NCBI GenBank assembly: GCA_000091205.1
Contig: AP006489.2
DNA: 64,000 nt
Origin: Cyanidioschyzon merolae
Taxonomy: Eukaryota
Direction: 5' to 3' (one strand)
Shown: positions 9,021-57,443 of the stretch, in pieces
Layout of the letters: each line of letters starts with the position of its first letter
Numbering within the stretch: position 1 is the first letter of the stretch
Notes under the pieces: generated by a model
Told to the model about the DNA's origin: nothing
What the model saw: the letters and a program-made list of their open reading frames with translations, nothing else
Databases searched by the model: none
Position numbers and translations under genes: made by a program

Positions 9021-10553
9021 CTACGCAGCTTCCTCTTCACCGACGCGTACAGCGCAGGACTGCTGGACTTGCAAGAGTGTCTCGATCCCCCGAATCCGAT
9101 AGCCAACAGCGAGGGCCCACAGGATAAGGTGCGCCAGATACTCCCGGCTACTGACGATAGTCACAGAGACGCCCTTGTAGTGGGGAATGCCGCTGGACTC
9201 TTTGTCGGATGTTTCGTTACTCTTTCCAAAGAGAGTTGTAAGAATGCGGTTCCGTACAATATTCTCGCCTCCGGAAAACAGACCTCCCACCACATCCCCG
9301 CCGAGCTTTCCAACTACGGACCGTACAAGTTCATGCATTGTTTCCGTGACTTCACCCCGCAGATCAGATTGGAGCGCAACTAGTCGCTCCACTCCGATCT
9401 GACGCATATAATCGAGGAGCATGATGCGATCCGTCAGATATAGGCCGAGGCGGCTCTCCAGCATCTCGATATACTCTTCCGCAGACATTTCGCGGCCGTG
9501 GATGAGCACCTTCCCGCCGACTACCTTGCGCTCTTTTTCAATCCGATCTTTCGAGCCATTATCGGCTTTCTTTTCCGACCGTTCGGATGAGGAGTTTTCG
9601 GCAGGCTTTAAGCCCATCGTCCACGAGAAAATGTCAAATTTCTCATCCATGCGCATTCGGACTTCTGCGGCATGGTACATGTAACCAGTCATCATGCTGG
9701 AGAGGAGAAGCTTCGAAAAGGCTTCCCGATTCGTCGTAATTTGGATTTCGAACCCTTCCTGAGGTAGCGTGCCCAATATGCCGAGAGCTGTTCGCTTGAA
9801 GGCTTCCTTCGTATCTTCAGGGACGTCCTTTGAGATACCATCAACGTCATTCAAATTCTCCAAGTCCTCGTAAACGCGCACGTACTCCAGGAGGCTCGTT
9901 ATTTTGCGACCTGCCGCAGCCTCAGTCCGGACCAGTCGTTTCGCGTTGTCCACAATCTGACGAAGTGCCCACTTGAGCGTTTCCTCGTCACCATCAAAGA
10001 CAAAATTGTTATCATCATTGTCGTCCTCATCGTCCCCTTTATCCTCCGCCCGGTTTCTGTTCTCCTCGCGTTCATCGTCGTTGTCTTTAGGCCCCTGGCC
10101 GGAACTCCCCTGAGGCGGTTGCAAATTCGCCGCCAAGCGAAATCGTTCAGTTTTCGGCCCTACTGGGCAGGGCAGCGCACACCTGTTAGAGCCCCCTTCT
10201 TCTTCGAAACCATTCAAGCACTCACGCTGGTGCCTGTGTGCTTGCGCGAAAACCCGCTGACCCAGCCACGTGCTTCCCTGGTGCGGCAGTGTGTCCTGCG
10301 CCGCCGAGCAAGCAGCGCGGCTGCGAGCAGCGGCAAACGAGGACTTTCCGGTACCGTACGAGCTGGTACACGCTGAACATCGAATTCCAAAGAAGCGCGG
10401 CAAACCTGGAACTACGAAGGCGTCTCGCATTTTACTGCCTTGCGGCGTCGCTCCACAGAGTACGTAGTCCAACGCTAATCGAAGTACGCAAGAGGTGATG
10501 AGCGTAGGATGTCCACATGCGTTCTGAATCGCGCGAGCACATCCATGGGCCAT
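9021..10553 (-). CDS. DUF760-domain protein with Ser/Ala-rich N-terminal (possible transit peptide) and acidic linker
   Basis: 'LLSSMMTGYMYHAAEVRMRMDEKF' and the surrounding region match the DUF760 consensus (..MMTGY.lRNAE.R..L). The second half repeats the fold. The N-terminal ~40 aa of the listed ORF may be read-through, and the true start may be the internal Met (MRDAFVVPGL...). Confidence 0.5.
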   Translation of the reverse strand: MAHGCARAIQNACGHPTLITSCVLRLALDYVLCGATPQGSKMRDAFVVPGLPRFFGIRCSACTSSYGTGKSSFAAARSRAACSAAQDTLPHQGSTWLGQRVFAQAHRHQRECLNGFEEEGGSNRCALPCPVGPKTERFRLAANLQPPQGSSGQGPKDNDDEREENRNRAEDKGDDEDDNDDNNFVFDGDEETLKWALRQIVDNAKRLVRTEAAAGRKITSLLEYVRVYEDLENLNDVDGISKDVPEDTKEAFKRTALGILGTLPQEGFEIQITTNREAFSKLLLSSMMTGYMYHAAEVRMRMDEKFDIFSWTMGLKPAENSSSERSEKKADNGSKDRIEKERKVVGGKVLIHGREMSAEEYIEMLESRLGLYLTDRIMLLDYMRQIGVERLVALQSDLRGEVTETMHELVRSVVGKLGGDVVGGLFSGGENIVRNRILTTLFGKSNETSDKESSGIPHYKGVSVTIVSSREYLAHLILWALAVGYRIRGIETLLQVQQSCAVRVGEEEAA

Positions 10554-11718
10554 ATATTTACATTTATGTATATTTCTTAGACTTCAGGACTGTCTGGCGA
10601 GCACCGTGGGGCGAAAACGCTGCACGCCCATGGGATAAATTGATATAGACGTGCAAACGCCTCCCGGCTGCCTTCGACCAGCACTCTGCAATGAGCTCCA
10701 GATTCTCCGTGTAAACCTCGAACCTGAGAGGCTGCTCTACAAAGTTAGATCGCGTCAGCTCTCATGATCTCGTCTTCAGCACTGGGCATATCCTAAAAAA
10801 GCTGGCAGCGTTAAAGTATCGGTTCAGGAACTGAAAGCGTTTGTTGCTTCTGGTGGTACGCACCAATGCATCGATTCCTCGAACTCGAGCGCTCTGTCCG
10901 AGTACAATCTCCTCTAGGCAGACTTTCGTTCTTCTTCCTCGTCTTCGTCACTTGCTCTTATTTGCTCGACGATCACCGAGAAGAGGCTTTTTTCCGTTTT
11001 TTCTATGGCACTCGGCTATAACCGCCGTCCAGGTTCCGCGATTTATAGGTCCATATCTTTCCCTTGGATTTTTCATTTCTTCAAATGAAAGAACTTCGGA
11101 GACGTCTGCTATGCACCGCGACAAAACAATTGATTAAACGCATCTCGGGGTGAAACACAATTGACGTAAAAGACTGCAAAATGCGTGAAAAACTGCCAGA
11201 GGATGCGAAATTGACGCTCGAACGCTGCCATCAGCGTCCTTTGAGAGGTGACTACAGAATTGGAAGGAAAGGGAAAACCGTCGTATTGAACGCGGGCGAT
11301 ACGCTAGCAGAAAAGGAAAGCATCAGAAAAATCCCGGAGAGGCTGATGTAGACTACAGAGGGAAGAGACCCAAACTTTAGTACTTGCCTAAGATATGTTG
11401 TTGGACCTGTTCTACATTATACTCACGTGGATGTAGAAAAGCCACGGAAATAGTGTTTATCTGTCGTGAGCAAGTGCGCCTCGGCCGTTTTGCTGTGCAG
11501 CGCAATGCTCGCAAGCTAAGAAGGTCGGGAGCACGCATTTACACGGTTGTACAAGAGTTATGTCGCATCCAGGGGCCTGAGCAGTGCACTACAACGGGCG
11601 AGTGGGCAACTTTTTCTGATGCCACAGCGCCGTAAGGTTCATAGAGCGCTTTGGTGCAAGACCTCTGCAGATGAAGCTCACAGCCGCGCATACGAGAGAT
11701 TTTCTTCAGTGCTGATCA

Positions 11719-41855: not shown

Positions 41856-44492
41856 CTAGAAACGTTCCTGGATAAAGAGGATCGGTTTCTTCGTACCGAG
41901 GCGCTCGGGTTGCCTCTGGACTTTGTGCATGGCCCGTCGAACACTCGCACCAAGGGCTGGATTCCCACAGAAAAAGATGCCTCTTTGTACGTCGTTGGAG
42001 AAGCCAGACACGCGATTGAACTGTTTCACCTGGATAATGTTCCCAAAAAGTCTTTCAAACTCGTACGGATCGCGCAGGTCCAACAAATCCTCGATGAACG
42101 TTTCAAAGCGGGGCCGTCCCTGGTGAAACTGCAGTATCGACTTGGTTGATTGGCCGGCTTCCAGGATGCTCGCAGGAATCTCGCCTCTCGTCAGAAATAT
42201 GTGTACCCGAACGCGCGGAATCAGGTCAGGAGTCCAGGTTTGCGCCAAGTCGAACAGGCCTTGAATACCCCACAGGTCCGCGTATTCGCGCACCACCCAG
42301 ACAAAAGTTAGACTGAACACGTTCGCATACAGACGCTGCTCCTGCTGCTCCTGCTGCTCCTGCTGCTCCTGCTGCTCCTGCTGCTCCTGCTGCTCCTGCT
42401 GCTCCTGCTGCTCCTGCTGCTCCTGCTGCTCCTGCTGCTCCTGCTGCTCCTGCTGCTCCTGCTGCTCCTGCTGCTCTACATGGGAGACCTTATCGTCGGA
42501 TTGGACGCACCGCTGCTGCGCCACAGCTGTCCCAAGACCGTTCCCCCTCCGCGAGAGCAAGGCGCTCGCTTTCCGTCCCAGATGACGCACGCGCCTCAGC
42601 TGGATACGCCACGGCCGCGGCAGATAGAAAATTCTGAGGGTCAGCGCAAACATGATACTTTTGATACAGAAGAGGACGAGGGCGATGATGCGCATCGCAT
42701 TCCCTGCGCCGTCCATATAATGCGACGAGTGTTGTTCGATGCCGAAGAGCGTTGCACCCACGACCAGGTCTGCAACGAGGAGTCCGCAAACACTCAGTGA
42801 TACAAAGCCGCGCGGGGTGCCGACGTAACGCCAGCGAGGCGGATCCAATGTCACCAGCATATCCGACGCAATCGTGAACGAGAAGAGAAAAAGAAGCACT
42901 GCCGAGCTGGTGAAATCCGCAACTAAGGCTACATTGGCATCGAATGCATTTGCGATGACATAAATCGTCAAGCTAATGTACAGCATCCAGAGCAGACTGA
43001 ACAGCCAGAGGCTACTCAATACAAAAGCCCGTAGTCGATCAATTCGCGTTTCCGTTTGGAATATTCCAACGCGCTCTTTCATGTACATCGAAAGGATGCC
43101 AGATTTCCGTATTCGATCCAGCAACTGTGCCGATGTTTCCTGTTTGCTCAGTGTATCGAGAGTCCCGTGCTGCGTTCCGGCCCTGATTCCTCGAATATCA
43201 TCATCGGACGCATCCGCGATGCCGGCCAATTTGGCGGGAGCACGAGCGCTACATATTTCCCGGAGTATGGAGACCATCGGGGTTGCACCAACGCCGCTTC
43301 CGATCAGCAACTGGTAGGGAAAGTGCAGATGGGACTGCGCCGGTGCTCCATACGGGCCTGCCAAGAGCACCCGGTACGCCTCGATTGTCGTCATACATAT
43401 CCGTTCAGGGGCCAAATCGAGGCCGTCCGCCGTTGTTGTCGCTGCTTCTGCCACTGCTGCTTCTGCAAGGCTGTGCAGCCTGCGAGTCCATTTGCCCACT
43501 GCCGCAATGTAGAACGTGATGCGATCCGAGTCGCATGACGGTGCGCTTGCGGCTGTGAACGGATGCCAAGCATCAGCGGGCATACCACACCCTTTGCGCG
43601 TGTCGATGATCATGATCTTGAAATACTGGCCCGGTAGGTAGACCGCGTTCCGTCGTTCAACGGAGAGCTTCACGATATTGGAGTTTGCCTGAGCCAGACT
43701 GAGCACCAGGATGCGCCGAGGAGTTACGGTCGCCCGGGAGAGCTGATACAAGCGGTCGATGATATAGAGGAATACCGGGCCTGCGAAGAAGTACACCGTC
43801 CAGGGCCGGCCGCCTCGCAAGCCGTGAAATACCAGACAGATGTATACCAGGACCGCAATCGGACGGTGCGTCCACCAGAACAGGCGGAACCATTTCCGGC
43901 GTACAGTTTCAACTCCAAAACCGAGCAAAGGAACCAGCAAAACCATGAGCACCACACCTGTGACAAAAAGCATGGTCGCTGGCAGTGCCGCTGGTCCCGT
44001 GAACAAACCGCCACGAAATACGAACACGCTCGCAGCGTAGTTGACGATCTGGGCGATGCCGTGAATCCAGCCGGTTGCGGCAAGTGACGTCCCTACGATG
44101 GTGTGCATGTCGGGTATCCATCGCTCCACACATAGCAGGTCGTAGAGAGGTGTGCGGTACAGAACCGTCGCTAGAGTGCGGTTTATCGTGAGCGGGAGGA
44201 CAAGCGAACAGAATGTGCACGCAAATCCCATGCCCCGTGCGATGGATCCCGCATACCGCAGGATACCACTGGGGCGCAAGTCGACGATAACGTAGCGTAC
44301 CCCGTAAGCAAAGAACCACGACATGGCACAGAAGAACAGGAGAACAATCGAGTACCAAAGCCCGTTTTCAACGAGGTGGATATTCCATATTTGCGTACGT
44401 TCCGTCAGGCTGGGATCGAGATTCGACTCGTTCTGTTTTGCTTTGTTCATCAGTATCGTACGAAAAACGCAGATGGAATAACCACAAGTCAA
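41856..44492 (-). CDS. Ferric-reductase/NADPH-oxidase (NOX/FRE) family protein with large TM-rich insertion and (QQE)n tract in the NADPH-binding domain
   Basis: A ferric-reductase TM domain with His-containing helices. FAD motif 'HPFTAASAP'. NAD motif 'LLIGSGVGATPMVSIL'. The C-terminus has 'FFCGNPALG'. An insertion of about 330 aa with 4 hydrophobic helices and 16x QQE lies between the NAD motifs. Confidence 0.8.
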   Translation of the reverse strand: MTCGYSICVFRTILMNKAKQNESNLDPSLTERTQIWNIHLVENGLWYSIVLLFFCAMSWFFAYGVRYVIVDLRPSGILRYAGSIARGMGFACTFCSLVLPLTINRTLATVLYRTPLYDLLCVERWIPDMHTIVGTSLAATGWIHGIAQIVNYAASVFVFRGGLFTGPAALPATMLFVTGVVLMVLLVPLLGFGVETVRRKWFRLFWWTHRPIAVLVYICLVFHGLRGGRPWTVYFFAGPVFLYIIDRLYQLSRATVTPRRILVLSLAQANSNIVKLSVERRNAVYLPGQYFKIMIIDTRKGCGMPADAWHPFTAASAPSCDSDRITFYIAAVGKWTRRLHSLAEAAVAEAATTTADGLDLAPERICMTTIEAYRVLLAGPYGAPAQSHLHFPYQLLIGSGVGATPMVSILREICSARAPAKLAGIADASDDDIRGIRAGTQHGTLDTLSKQETSAQLLDRIRKSGILSMYMKERVGIFQTETRIDRLRAFVLSSLWLFSLLWMLYISLTIYVIANAFDANVALVADFTSSAVLLFLFSFTIASDMLVTLDPPRWRYVGTPRGFVSLSVCGLLVADLVVGATLFGIEQHSSHYMDGAGNAMRIIALVLFCIKSIMFALTLRIFYLPRPWRIQLRRVRHLGRKASALLSRRGNGLGTAVAQQRCVQSDDKVSHVEQQEQQEQQEQQEQQEQQEQQEQQEQQEQQEQQEQQEQQEQQEQQEQRLYANVFSLTFVWVVREYADLWGIQGLFDLAQTWTPDLIPRVRVHIFLTRGEIPASILEAGQSTKSILQFHQGRPRFETFIEDLLDLRDPYEFERLFGNIIQVKQFNRVSGFSNDVQRGIFFCGNPALGASVRRAMHKVQRQPERLGTKKPILFIQERF
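42336..42477. repeat. (CTGCTCCTG)n 9-bp microsatellite, ~16 units, in-frame within the NOX gene (encodes QQE repeats)
   Basis: Direct reading of the sequence: 'gctgctcctgctgctcctg...'. Confidence 0.9.
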
Positions 44493-45515: not shown

Positions 45516-46727
45516 CTAGAATGCGTCTGTCGCCCAGAAAACATGTCGGTCCATTTCAGGCAGCGCCTGTTGTCCCGCATCCTGCTCAAGGAGTGCCCGA
45601 TACATATATCCGTGGTCTTCCGTCGTTTCGAGAACTGCCGATGATCCACCGATGAGTGGAAGCAGCGGCGCCGCTAGAACAGCGCAAACTTGACGAACGT
45701 CGGGCGAAACTGCCCTCGCGAGGAATGCATCAAGATAGAGGCCTGCTCGTTTGAGTCCACAAAGTCGAACAACGAACTCTCGCACATGAATGGCGTCTTC
45801 TCGTTTTTGGAGAATCGCGTAGGCTTCTTTCGTACGTGTCTGCAATCGAAAGGGCGTTAGATTCGCGTCATTCCATTCGGTGTCACCGCTTTCCGCCCGC
45901 ACCCATCTCTGCCAGTACGCCGGGTCATCGCGAACGATGCAGCCGTCAAACCTGGATGCGAACTCTGCGTACGCTTCCGAGCAGCGCTGAATTTCCACCT
46001 CGCTCCCCAAGGCCAATGTTTCAATATGATCGCGATGGGAATGTGCAACTTCTCGAACGACACGGACGAATTTTTGTGGGACTGAAATCCATCCAAGAGA
46101 GCGATACAGCGACTCGGAGCTGCTCGTATGCAAAAACGACAGCGCAAAACCAGCAGCTCGCATTCGGGTACTCGCCTCTTCGAGCAGTCGGGACGCAATG
46201 CCCTGTCTCCGGTACGCTGAAGCGACACTTACCTCGCCAATACCAGCCGCAGACACCGCTGATCCCTTGAGATAGACACGTCGTCGGAAGATTCGCAGCG
46301 AGCCAATAAACTTGTCCTGCTCTCCGACAGCGACGAGGATGTCTTCCGACAAACGTTCCACAGCGCCGGGATCGTTTTCGACATGTCTCAGAAAATATGA
46401 ACGAGGAGGCGCGGCAGTTCCCTTCGCGTCTTTGAAAACGCCGTAGACAAATTCCAACCAAGCTTCGAGTTCCTCGGAGCGGAGTCCACGGACTTGGTAG
46501 CTGGCCATGTTTAGTTGTAGCCTAGTCCAGGAACGCGAATAGACTTTCCACGGAGAGACGCGCTTTCGCCGGCACGTGTGTGTTGCCACAACCGGAGCCT
46601 CGCTGGAGGCGTTCACTGAGTGAGCCGCGCGGTAGCCCAGCGTCGTACAGCAGAACGCTGTTCGTGGGCCTCTCGTCTCCCTCATTCCGGTCGCGTCGCC
46701 ACTGGTCAATGTTCTAACCAGTGGCAA
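45516..46727 (-). CDS. GNAT-family N-acetyltransferase (Eis-like two-domain architecture)
   Basis: The GNAT acetyl-CoA motif 'VSVASAYRRQGIASRLLEEA' (R/Q-x-x-G-x-A) follows the N-terminal 'MASYQVRGLRSEELEAWLEFVYGVF'. The ~400-aa length is consistent with Eis/enhanced intracellular survival-type GNATs. Confidence 0.6.
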   Translation of the reverse strand: MPLVRTLTSGDATGMRETRGPRTAFCCTTLGYRAAHSVNASSEAPVVATHTCRRKRVSPWKVYSRSWTRLQLNMASYQVRGLRSEELEAWLEFVYGVFKDAKGTAAPPRSYFLRHVENDPGAVERLSEDILVAVGEQDKFIGSLRIFRRRVYLKGSAVSAAGIGEVSVASAYRRQGIASRLLEEASTRMRAAGFALSFLHTSSSESLYRSLGWISVPQKFVRVVREVAHSHRDHIETLALGSEVEIQRCSEAYAEFASRFDGCIVRDDPAYWQRWVRAESGDTEWNDANLTPFRLQTRTKEAYAILQKREDAIHVREFVVRLCGLKRAGLYLDAFLARAVSPDVRQVCAVLAAPLLPLIGGSSAVLETTEDHGYMYRALLEQDAGQQALPEMDRHVFWATDAF

Positions 46728-47870: not shown

Positions 47871-48646
47871 TGCGGGAACTGGCATGCCAGCCTGTAGCAA
47901 GAAAGAGACGTCGCGACCTCTACATGTGAATAAGCTACTGGTATCGATCAATTTATGAAACCATGTTTGATAGCGGTGCGAATTATCATGATTCTGATGA
48001 TGGAACGAATGCCAGCGGAAAATTGCCGAGGGAGCCTCTCAGGGAAGGCGATTGGAAACCCAGAAGCTACATAGAAACCGCAAGCCCTCATCGATGCACT
48101 TTGATTGCACGGGCTGTTCATATTCAAACAGCTGCTGAAAATTTGGAAAGAAAGGAGCACGGCGAGCAGCTCACTTGTCCATTTTCATATGACATAGGTG
48201 TATGATCAAAACCCACCACTGAAAGACGAGTGATTCCGTTTCAGGAACCTCGCTCATGCGACCGACGCCAGCAAGCTCGCTCGCCCGAAGGCCAGTCTCG
48301 ATCCGGATGACAGGCGTCTCGAGGCGAACCCAAATTTGGCGACGCCCGCTCGATCCACCAGGGCCGACGTGCACGCATGCTCGCCGCTGCTGTACACGTG
48401 TCCCGCACGAGGTGACGCGAGCCAGGGATCCAATCGCCACGCGCATGCCGCGTAGCACCCGTGGATGCGAGGCCCTGCGCTGCTCCGGTCCCGAGCGGGC
48501 AAAAGATCATGGTATGGCTGCTGCTTGGATACGCGTTGAGCTGTAGCAATATCGTTCCGCTTCTTTCGCTCAAATTTTTCAGGTCTCAACGAAAAAGTCT
48601 TCAGTAGAGCTCCGAAGATAAAACGCCAAATTGCGGAAGCAGTCGT

Positions 48647-49258
48647 ATGTATGCAGGAATGCGTCTTAGAGTTGTCGCATTGCTCTTGATGCTCGTCACA
48701 TATCTGTGCGTTCCGAGTGCTGCGCTCGGTGTTGCCGCTGAGGATACGATTCAGGGCTCGCGTACCGTTCTCCGTGCTGCACCGGGCACAGAGTTTCGGA
48801 TTGGTGGCCCTGTCACGATCCAAAACATGACGATCGCTGCAAACTATCTCGTTGGAATCGAGGTGGCGCCAATGCCCCCGGGCATGCCAGATCCAGCGGC
48901 ACAAAATGTTGTGCATTTGGAGGCTGATGTGCACGCCACATCCACGAATCCCTGGGGATTCCCCAATGGATCCTGGATCCCGTACCTGAGCATTGTCTAC
49001 ACGATCAGCAAAGAGGGATCATCCTGGAGCGCCCGGGGTGTTCTCAGCCCTATGACTGCAGATGATGGCCCGCACTACGCCGACAGTCTGACACTTGCGG
49101 GTCCGGGTCGCTATGCGCTCATATACAAGCTCATTCCACCGCAAGTGAATGGTTTTCTAAGACACGTTGATCACGCGACTGGTGTGCCCGACTGGTGGAC
49201 GCCCTTCGAGGTGCCGTTCAACTTCACGTATCCGGTTGAAACAGCGTCAGCATCTTAA
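48647..49258 (+). CDS. P19/Tp34 (FTP-family) cupredoxin-like iron/copper-binding protein with signal peptide
   Basis: A signal peptide 'MRLRVVALLLMLVTYLCVPSAALG'. The mature region 'HLEADVHATSTNPWGFPNGSWIPYLSIVYTI...LSPMTADDGPHYADSLTL...GFLRHVDHATGVPDWWTPFEVPFNFTYP' is collinear with Campylobacter P19 'HLEADIHALKNNPNGFPEGFWMPYLTIAYEL...LMPMVADDGPHYGANIAM...GFGRHVDEETGVGKWFEPFKVDYKFKY'. Confidence 0.75.
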   Translation: MYAGMRLRVVALLLMLVTYLCVPSAALGVAAEDTIQGSRTVLRAAPGTEFRIGGPVTIQNMTIAANYLVGIEVAPMPPGMPDPAAQNVVHLEADVHATSTNPWGFPNGSWIPYLSIVYTISKEGSSWSARGVLSPMTADDGPHYADSLTLAGPGRYALIYKLIPPQVNGFLRHVDHATGVPDWWTPFEVPFNFTYPVETASAS

Positions 49259-55274: not shown

Positions 55275-55946
55275 GTGCGCAGTAAACAGCAGCGACTGGC
55301 AATAAAGGCCGCAGCGTTTCCCACGTCGCACTTTTTGGACACGGGAGCGCACCAGCGACCAAGGCACTCAGCTGCAGGAACGAAGCGGATGCTTCGAGTG
55401 CTTCGCAGGTCTTCGAGTTTCAACCTGGTCGGGCCTTTCCCGGCTGCGATCCGGCCGAGGCTGGGTGTTCGGGAACAGAGCGGCGCGGCCAGTTATGTGG
55501 AAAGCCTCACGCAGCTGGGTCGCAAAGTGACACTGCCCAAGTCACCGTCGGAAGCTGTTCTTGAGAAAGTTGCAAACATGCACGAGAATTACCCTTACGT
55601 GACGCGCTTCACCTGCCCCGAGTTCACGTCGCTCTGTCCTCTTACAGGGCAACCGGACTTTTGTCATATGGTAATAGACTATGTGCCAGACAAGTGGCTC
55701 GTGGAGAGCAAATCGCTAAAGTTGTATTTACATTCGTTTCGTAATCACGGAGACTTCCACGAGGCATGCACTATTGGTATTGCCCGTAGGCTCACGACGG
55801 AACTAGAACCCAAGTGGCTGCGCATCGCGGGCTACTGGTATCCGCGTGGTGGCATTCCAATCGATGTCTTCTACCAGACGGGGGAGCCACCAAAAGGTCT
55901 CTGGATACCCGATACAGGTGTTCAGCCGTATCGCGGTAGAGGCTGA
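55275..55946 (+). CDS. queF: NADPH-dependent 7-cyano-7-deazaguanine (preQ0) reductase QueF, unimodular bacterial type, with N-terminal extension
   Basis: '[68 protein letters not shown]...[13 protein letters not shown]' is collinear with B. subtilis QueF '[67 protein letters not shown]...FTPRGGISIDPY'. The catalytic Cys and the E(S)K(S)LKLY QueF motif are present. The listed start is GTG, and the true start is probably the ATG at 55389 ([11 protein letters not shown], Arg-rich presequence-like). Confidence 0.8.
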
Positions 55947-56900: not shown

Positions 56901-57443
56901 TTAGCTGACAGGCCCGTAGGCGTGATCGAACGATGTCTCGTGATCGTGCTCTATTCGGTGCAGTGAGTCGAGAGGTTTCGGTCGATAGATTGCACGGGCA
57001 GTCGCTGTTTCCTCCACTGTTACAGCAGATAAACAAGGAATAGAAGGTTTCAGCTTCCGATACGCCCAGTACGCAATATACTCAGCAGTTGGCGCGTCTG
57101 TCTCTAAGGTCTCGTTCAAGTGCTGGTGATCAAGAAACTTTTCCACAAGAGGGCGAACGACGGCTGCGATCTCGTCAAAGTCCATGACCATGCCTTTCTT
57201 GGGACCAGAGGTCACCAGCGCCTCCGTCGATACTTCCACAACCAGCACGTACGAGTGACCGTGTAATCGACTGCACTTCGAGTCGTGGTGTTGTAGACAA
57301 TGGGATGCCTCGAAGGGGAACCGCTTCTCCAGAATAAACATGGCTGATGTTGCGTTCACCGCTGACCCAGCAGGCCTCAGAACACTTTCTCGCACCAGCG
57401 GCTGAAGCGCGTTCCCGGTTGACAGGGAAGCAGCGCACGCCAT
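56901..57443 (-). CDS. queD: 6-carboxy-5,6,7,8-tetrahydropterin synthase QueD (bacterial PTPS-I type), with N-terminal extension
   Basis: 'FILEKRFPFEASHCLQHHDSKCSRLHGHSYVLVVEV...GMVMDFDEIAAVVRPLVEKFLDHQHLNE...EYIAYWAYRKLKPSIPCLSAVTVEETATARAIYRP' is near-collinear with E. coli QueD '[37 protein letters not shown]...[27 protein letters not shown]...[36 protein letters not shown]'. The Cys-x3-His-Gly-His spacing is the QueD type, not the C-x5-HGH of animal PTPS. The true start is possibly the Met at about 57341. Confidence 0.8.
   Translation of the reverse strand: MACAASLSTGNALQPLVRESVLRPAGSAVNATSAMFILEKRFPFEASHCLQHHDSKCSRLHGHSYVLVVEVSTEALVTSGPKKGMVMDFDEIAAVVRPLVEKFLDHQHLNETLETDAPTAEYIAYWAYRKLKPSIPCLSAVTVEETATARAIYRPKPLDSLHRIEHDHETSFDHAYGPVS

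Follow-up and report, generated by a model that had tools for sequence, protein, structure and literature searches.

A P19-family periplasmic iron-protein homologue encoded on chromosome 7 of the red alga Cyanidioschyzon merolae

How does a bacterial periplasmic metal-handling protein come to be encoded on a eukaryotic chromosome, and what would it do there, away from its operon partners? The question arises in a 64-kb stretch of DNA, hereafter the window, which is part of chromosome 7 of the red alga Cyanidioschyzon merolae 10D. On its plus strand, at 48647-49258, an open reading frame (ORF) that runs from ATG to TAA in the ORF listing encodes a protein of 203 amino acids (203 codons plus stop). 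By exact-sequence look-up this protein is identical to BAM79610.1 (XP_005535896.1, UniRef M1V4R2) of C. merolae 10D, and the reference annotation calls it 'similar to periplasmic protein p19'. The ORF listing, the exact match and a match to the Pfam family PF10634 mark 48647..49258 (+) as the complete coding sequence of the C. merolae P19 homologue.

The gene is, we infer, CMG092C, for which a role as a Tp34-type partner of FTR1 has already been discussed (PMC12112623). Because the exact protein is annotated as BAM79610.1 and CMG092C was treated in that 2025 transcriptome paper, the gene is not a new discovery, and the implication of the original prediction that the feature had gone unrecognised has to be dropped. 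A 2019 catalogue of genes that the Cyanidiales acquired by horizontal gene transfer (HGT) mentions neither iron nor P19 in its main text (Rossoni et al. 2019). What is new here is confirmation at the level of the ligands, evidence of selection, a short list of lineage-specific changes, and the restriction of the gene to the lineage of Cyanidioschyzon and Cyanidium, for which the likely source operon is alphaproteobacterial. We lean towards the reading that the ORF encodes a functional member of the P19/FetP/FtrA/Tp34 family which was acquired by HGT and which feeds iron to unlinked Ftr1-type permeases.

Family, fold and metal sites of the encoded protein

The protein matches PF10634 (Iron_transport) with E=3.4e-49 and 167.3 bits, where the curated cut-off is 21, and residues 48-195 are aligned with profile positions 3-148 of 150; NCBIfam gave no match for it. 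When the PDB was searched with phmmer, the protein found E. coli FetP (3nrp, 4.9e-37), Campylobacter jejuni P19 (3lzl, 1.9e-33), FtrA-P19 (7r4z, 7e-33), the FtrA proteins of Rubrivivax and Brucella (about 1e-32) and Treponema Tp34 (2o6c, 2.8e-17). The FetP, P19 and FtrA structures as a group lie between 1e-37 and 1e-31, and the alignments each cover residues 44/49-184/196 of the ORF. In sequence, then, the similarity to the P19 family is far above chance. The P19/Tp34 assignment had first been made on an alignment of about 110 residues; the similarity is real and the length was an underestimate, as the whole domain of about 148 residues is matched. The P19 domain, as defined by the Pfam span, the PDB alignments, a check of alignment columns and the structural model described next, is placed at residues 49-196 (48791..49234, +).

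An AlphaFold2 (AF2) model built from a 65-sequence alignment has a mean predicted local distance difference test score (pLDDT) of 87, rising above 90 across residues 49-196. In a Foldseek comparison of the model with the PDB, C. jejuni P19 (cjP19), FetP and FtrA were matched at template modelling scores (TM, normalised to the target) of 0.85-0.92 and root-mean-square deviations (rmsd) of 1.5-2.8 A. The best 38 PDB matches are all P19, FetP, FtrA, Tp34, HftA or chain 4nwn_B, which is part of a designed cage and has the P19 fold, at TM(target) 0.79-0.92 and rmsd 1.5-3.2 A, and unrelated folds start at E of about 1e-2. As modelled, the protein has the P19 immunoglobulin-like beta-sandwich. One match, 8t7k, titled 'pathogen-specific surface antigen', was considered as a eukaryotic protein with the P19 fold and was rejected, as it is HftA of Treponema denticola.

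Residue equivalences were taken from the PDB alignments and from a MAFFT alignment of 163 bacterial relatives together with FetP and cjP19. In cjP19 the Cu ligands are reported to be His42, Met88, His95 and His132 (Chan et al. 2010). These align with H90, M136, H143 and H173 of the ORF, in columns that are invariant in 163/163 bacterial relatives. The carboxylates of the Mn/Fe site of cjP19 are Glu3, Glu44, Asp46 and Asp92 (PMC9174327), and they align with E49, E92, D94 and D140. All eight metal-site columns are invariant in 162-163/163 bacterial relatives, and all eight residues are kept in C. merolae. Since PDB titles name the cjP19 variants E44Q, M88I and D92H and the FetP variants E46Q and M90I, E44, M88 and D92 of cjP19 and E46 and M90 of FetP have been probed experimentally; for the Cu ligands, the titles bear out M88 and M90. 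The original prediction had asked for this check of the metal-binding residues, and had named absent ligands or a short, insignificant similarity as grounds for abandoning the assignment; because all four Cu ligands and all four Fe/Mn carboxylates are present and the similarity is long and significant, neither ground applies.

The domain is preceded by a hydrophobic N-terminal leader of the signal-peptide type that had been predicted, assigned by rule (hydropathy and (-3,-1) sites) to residues 1-28 (48647..48730, +). Its n-region carries R6 and R8, its h-region extends over the 14 residues V9-V22, and its c-region reads P-S-A-A-L-G; hydropathy reaches a maximum of 3.5 over residues 9-17, and small residues at -3/-1 provide candidate cleavage sites at 26 and 28. 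AF2 places a low-confidence helix at residues 6-20. An equivalent leader is found in the two algal relatives described below, Cyanidium and the 74%-identical protein encoded on contig L004, once the start of the gene is corrected; the database gene call of the 74% relative is truncated, and the L004 frame reaches an upstream Met, giving MDRLIRCWVIALFMVMVAHLC... On these features the protein would be secreted, although an uncleaved signal anchor is possible because residues 9-31 form a 23-residue uncharged run.

Between leader and domain, the alignment and low pLDDT define a linker of about 20 residues (residues 29-48, VAAEDTIQGSRTVLRAAPGT; 48731..48790, +), with pLDDT of 53-57 across residues 21-40. 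The linker is common to C. merolae and the 74% relative and, in the alignment, is found neither in Cyanidium nor in bacteria. In the bacterial homologues the Glu3-equivalent stands 2-3 residues past the predicted cleavage site, whereas the first ligand of the C. merolae protein and of the 74% relative follows about 20 residues that are poorly modelled (…EDTIQGSRTVLRAAPGT-E49).

Distribution and origin of the algal gene

Relatives were sought in a collection of about 5.8 billion proteins, and what is said here of eukaryotic relatives and of the gap in score rests on the best 120 matches listed. Three algal clusters are among them: the C. merolae type, which is also present in hot-spring metagenomes; the 74%-identical protein, which comes from sequencing run P0002; and CDCA14G3895 of Cyanidium caldarium, which is 57% identical. 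Neither Galdieria nor any other eukaryote appears among the best 120. The algal clusters are followed by hundreds of bacterial proteins with 50-63% identity over the mature domain, the named ones coming from Acetobacteraceae (including Acidocella and Rhodopila), Hyphomicrobiales, Pseudolabrys, Caulobacteraceae and Geminicoccaceae. With a profile made from the three algal sequences, the algal clusters reached 350-409 bits and the match after them 246 bits, a gap of about 100 bits, and all lower matches listed are bacterial. A scan of JGI metagenome contigs likewise gave identities of 99-100% and then of at most 59%. Judged by sequence, the closest relatives of the algal P19 among the matches listed are alphaproteobacterial P19 proteins.

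In a neighbour-joining tree of the three algal and 163 bacterial sequences (top matches only; 200 bootstraps), the algal proteins form a clade in 200/200 replicates, at a distance of about 0.6 from alphaproteobacterial P19 and of 0.96 from FetP and cjP19. Between C. merolae and L004, in both of which the gene has 203 codons, the proportions of differing nonsynonymous and synonymous sites (pN and pS) are 0.17 and 0.71, with a ratio of nonsynonymous to synonymous rates (dN/dS) of about 0.09, which indicates purifying selection. The GC content of the gene is 0.557, and 0.569 at third codon positions (GC3), within the range of its neighbours (0.48-0.65).

The gene is genuinely integrated in the host chromosome. 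As had been predicted, the host is a eukaryote: the window encodes AP180/ANTH, ABC1 kinase, Ndc80, ERCC1, Sen15 and glycine-cleavage T proteins, as well as TRAPP, RPN5, RNase P p29, p24 and SAP30-like proteins. The aminomethyltransferase, p24, AP180, GNAT and RPN5 ORFs are identical to C. merolae 10D proteins by exact-sequence look-up. P19 itself is flanked by BAM79609 (GNAT) and BAM79611 (RPN5), and since these accessions are consecutive with its own, the reference annotation has no gene between P19 and either neighbour.

With nearest relatives beyond the three algal clusters that are all bacterial, one might suspect a contaminant, an artefact of assembly or a functionless gene in decay, but we find this hardly credible. 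The ORF has exact C. merolae genes on both sides and belongs to a finished chromosome of 584 kb, its composition is host-like, and the same locus with its neighbours recurs on independent metagenome contigs. Nor does decay fit an ORF of 203 codons that is intact in the 74% relative at the dN/dS given above and whose transcript is detected and regulated (PMC12112623). Integration, composition, dN/dS and the independent contigs thus rule out both contamination and a pseudogene. The metagenome contigs in question (L002 and L003, from JGI 3300005861 and ENA ERZ27249350) have the same gene order, their positions 10001-10636 corresponding to 48623-49258 of the window. They differ from it by two nucleotides within the coding sequence, one of which gives R8G in the signal peptide, and their gene callers start P19 8 codons upstream, at a non-ATG codon.

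An algal-only clade, bacterial nearest relatives, host-like composition and low dN/dS support, on sequence grounds, one old bacterium-to-alga transfer before the split of Cyanidioschyzon and Cyanidium, followed by amelioration and purifying selection. The gene would have entered the common ancestor of the two genera by horizontal transfer from a bacterium with a P19 like that of present-day Alphaproteobacteria (Acetobacteraceae, e.g. Acidocella or Rhodopila; Hyphomicrobiales). It would then have gained or kept its N-terminal signal peptide and taken on the base composition of its host.

Permease linkage and other features of the window

The absence of a neighbouring permease, which the original prediction had pointed out, was confirmed in two ways. 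FTR1 (PF03239) is absent from all ORFs of at least 220 amino acids in the window, and a search profile built from 120 alphaproteobacterial FTR1 proteins, run against the six-frame translation of the 64 kb, gave a best E of 0.43, as compared with 8.9e-76 for a P19 profile used as positive control. The same six-frame translation contains no cupredoxin. The description of the gene as an orphan therefore stands for local linkage; genome-wide it does not, because FTR-family genes are present elsewhere (PMC12112623, PMC9812998).

The closest named bacterial homologues (loci L005, L006 and L007) lie in the order cupredoxin - FTR1 - P19, of the FtrB/FtrC/FtrA type. Linkage was assessed in 30 bacterial metagenome loci in which P19 has at least 1 kb of flanking sequence on either side: FTR1 is within 1.5 kb of P19 in 21/30 and a cupredoxin within 2.5 kb in 23/30. 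The remaining nine have no FTR1 on the fetched stretch (L015, L024, L054, L063, L064, L074, L082, L084 and L086), so an unlinked P19 is not unique to the alga; at such loci P19 stands beside other genes, such as those for cytochrome oxidase subunits, for a solute-binding protein, or for CbtA together with a cupredoxin. The source of the algal gene would likely have been a cupredoxin-FTR1-P19 operon, with the linkage to any permease lost in the alga. When the FTR1 of L005 was used as a query against the same collection of about 5.8 billion proteins, the 120 matches listed were all bacterial, at 66% identity or more, and are uninformative on algal FTRs.

A ferric reductase 4 kb upstream had been named as the nearest neighbour of P19. 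The gene is real: the ORF at 41856..44492 (-), of the ferric reductase / NOX family, matches FAD_binding_8 (1e-11), Ferric_reduct (4.4e-7) and NAD_binding_6 (7.9e-5) in Pfam. It is not the nearest gene, as it is separated from P19 by the GNAT acetyltransferase gene (45516-46727, -) and is thus two genes away, on the opposite strand. No ferric reductase was found within 10 kb of Cyanidium P19 or on the 4.8-kb contig L004, and the three algal loci show no synteny apart from P19 itself. Because the ferric reductase is on the other strand, beyond the GNAT gene, and is not conserved beside P19 in the relatives, its proximity is probably coincidental, and a functional ferric reductase-P19 pair was rejected on the same grounds. 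Between the FAD/NAD domains and the C-terminus (residues about 620-720) the ferric reductase ORF has a long low-complexity acidic insert, which gives weak, spurious Pfam matches (DDHD, Paf1, CotO and others); translations from M15 and from M57 both failed to match a database protein exactly.

Elsewhere in the window, a QueF-like ORF (55275-55946, +; PF14489, E=6e-31) and a PTPS/QueD-like ORF (56901-57443, -; PF01242, E=5e-33) are convergent and about 1 kb apart. Bacteria employ the enzyme QueF to make queuosine de novo, and the usual route in eukaryotes is the salvage of queuine; the pair may be a second bacterial- or plastid-derived contribution to the window. The 64 kb contain no tRNA genes and no Rfam families at the gathering threshold, and stretches of 2-5 kb, for example at 16-21 kb, 28.6-31.3 kb and 52.6-55.2 kb, are without a Pfam-matching ORF.

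A role in iron uptake and its alternatives

If the ORF encodes a functional member of the family, the protein would enter the secretory pathway and do its work at the extracytoplasmic face of a membrane, where it would hold one Cu (His/His/His/Met) and where the adjacent carboxylate site would capture Fe and possibly alter its redox state. It would then hand iron to Ftr1-type permeases encoded elsewhere, a handover that we propose by likeness to the bacterial pairs P19/cFtr1, FetP/FetM and FtrA/FtrC. Candidates are the CmFTR genes, among them CmFTR2 (CML004C) and CmFTR4 (CMN003C) (PMC12112623), and four subtelomeric 'iron permease' copies that lie in blocks on chromosomes 10, 12, 14 and 17 (PMC9812998). 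The low gene numbers of CML004C and CMN003C on chromosomes L (12) and N (14) would fit such subtelomeric copies.

Several observations weigh against this reading. Like the window, the 10 kb around Cyanidium P19, contig L004 and the metagenome contigs contain no FTR1 or cupredoxin; because no FTR1 lies in the 64 kb or beside the algal homologues, the partnership of the algal P19 with FTR1 is purely one that we infer. C. merolae is not known to have a rigid cell wall, and a soluble secreted protein would then lack a periplasm to hold it. Its external pH is 1-3, at which His and carboxylate ligands are largely protonated and bind metal poorly. In Cyanidium the residue equivalent to D92 of cjP19 is Gly (ADGGPHY, as against A-x-DGPHY), where every other sequence examined has Asp. 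Eleven columns that are at least 90% conserved among the 163 bacterial relatives differ in all three algal proteins; the replaced residues named in the ORF are 60, 62, 73, 100, 107, 115, 139, 147, 162 and 177. They include position 62 (E16 of cjP19), which is Glu in every bacterial relative, in cjP19 and in FetP and T/T/A in the algal proteins, position 73 (M27 of cjP19, M29 of FetP), which is Met in 161/163 bacterial relatives and V/V/L in the algae, and position 177 (Glu at position 136 of cjP19), which is Ala in the algae. Several of these replacements take away acidic residues, and with so many columns altered the function of the algal P19 may have shifted. As to origin, the algal clade is sister to the 163 sampled bacteria in 95/200 bootstraps and nested among them in the rest. 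In the Cyanidium protein (L001 10001-10549, CDCA14G3895) a neighbouring Asp may compensate for the Gly.

The same replaced Met and Glu residues would fit an altered role, for instance that of a stand-alone protein which buffers or detoxifies Cu, Ni or another divalent metal independently of any permease and takes no part in iron uptake. Under 1-3 mM Ni the CMG092C transcript is induced, together with CmFTR2 (PMC12112623, 2025), the PDB entry 7r3s is FtrA/P19 of Rubrivivax gelatinosus with Ni, and the algal gene, like nine of the 30 bacterial loci, has no adjacent permease gene. The habitat, moreover, is rich in metals and has soluble iron in plenty. We nevertheless regard this alternative as rather unlikely. 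C. merolae keeps both metal sites, Cu and Fe/Mn, in full, a 17-kDa protein with a single binding site could buffer millimolar metal only poorly, and co-induction of CmFTR2 in the same experiment fits a shared regulon. Excess Ni commonly brings secondary iron-deficiency responses.

A signal peptide shows entry into the secretory pathway only, and the protein could instead act in the lumen of the vacuole, endoplasmic reticulum (ER) or Golgi, where it would help an Ftr1/Fth1-like permease to move stored iron, as Fet5/Fth1 do in yeast. The missing wall and the acid medium, noted above, would then be no obstacle, and the lineage-specific disordered linker could hold sorting information or act as a tether. 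We think a lumenal role improbable, as the protein has no recognisable retention or vacuolar sorting signal and no C-terminal anchor, its tail being a short hydrophilic PVETASAS; in addition, its bacterial relatives include the acidophiles Acidocella and Rhodopila, whose periplasm is also acidic, so that the family evidently works at low pH.

Several known systems come close to the algal protein. The best PDB sequence match is FetP of the FetMP system of E. coli F11 (3nrp, 3nrq), at 43-44% identity and an rmsd of 1.5-2.0 A, and H44, E46, D48, M90, D94, H97 and H127 of FetP are all kept in the algal protein; Met29 of FetP, presumably a ligand of an alternative Cu position, is Val in the alga, however, and the FetM permease adjoins FetP whereas no permease adjoins the algal gene. 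C. jejuni P19 (with cFtr1; 3lzl, 3lzo-3lzr) is 40-43% identical at TM(target) of about 0.85, all metal-site residues are kept, and an N-terminal export signal in cjP19 has its counterpart in the predicted algal leader. It differs in that the algal protein belongs to a eukaryote, has no adjacent Ftr1, carries the linker of about 20 residues before the domain, lacks the cjP19 insertion 'EKDKKGGF' and has Met27 and Glu16 replaced.

FtrA of the FtrABCD system (Bordetella, Brucella, Rubrivivax gelatinosus; 7r3p-7r5p, 8vv5) is 39-42% identical, and the clusters of cupredoxin (FtrB-like), FTR1 (FtrC-like) and P19 (FtrA-like) in which the closest bacterial relatives occur are the likely source type. 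In the alga, however, only the FtrA-like gene is present, with no cupredoxin or FTR1 within 64 kb, and the donor-like loci that were examined showed no FtrD-type polyferredoxin. Tp34 of Treponema pallidum and HftA of T. denticola share the fold and family (E of 1e-17 to 1e-14, 29-31% identity) but are much more distant; both are lipoproteins, Tp34 binds lactoferrin and divalent metals, and they are not the closest functional model. With yeast Fet3p/Ftr1p and Chlamydomonas FOX1/FTR1 the likeness is one of functional analogy only, an extracytoplasmic Cu protein with an acidic iron site coupled to an Ftr1-type permease (PMC9174327); the fold is unrelated, and the multicopper oxidase holds four Cu as against one in P19.

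As a tentative extension of the favoured reading, C. merolae and its relatives may have a chimeric iron pathway, in which one bacterial P19 serves as the Cu-dependent partner of the amplified subtelomeric Ftr1-type permeases in place of a Fet3/FOX1 multicopper oxidase. The linker, possibly with an uncleaved leader, would tether P19 to the membrane in the wall-less Cyanidioschyzon lineage, and the loss of the Met and Glu residues would reflect a Cu/Fe relay adapted to extremely acid conditions. We put this forward as a speculation with the odds against it.

The finding matters modestly. It is a clean case of a bacterial periplasmic metal-handling protein that is intact in a eukaryote, its ligands kept and its gene under purifying selection, after parting from its operon partners, and it adds an iron/copper gene to the list of those that extremophilic red algae have acquired from bacteria. 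The lineage-specific changes, namely the linker and the Met/Glu replacements, could guide experiments, and as C. merolae is genetically tractable, a dependence of P19 on an Ftr1 permease, and its capacity to replace a multicopper oxidase, would be testable in a eukaryote.

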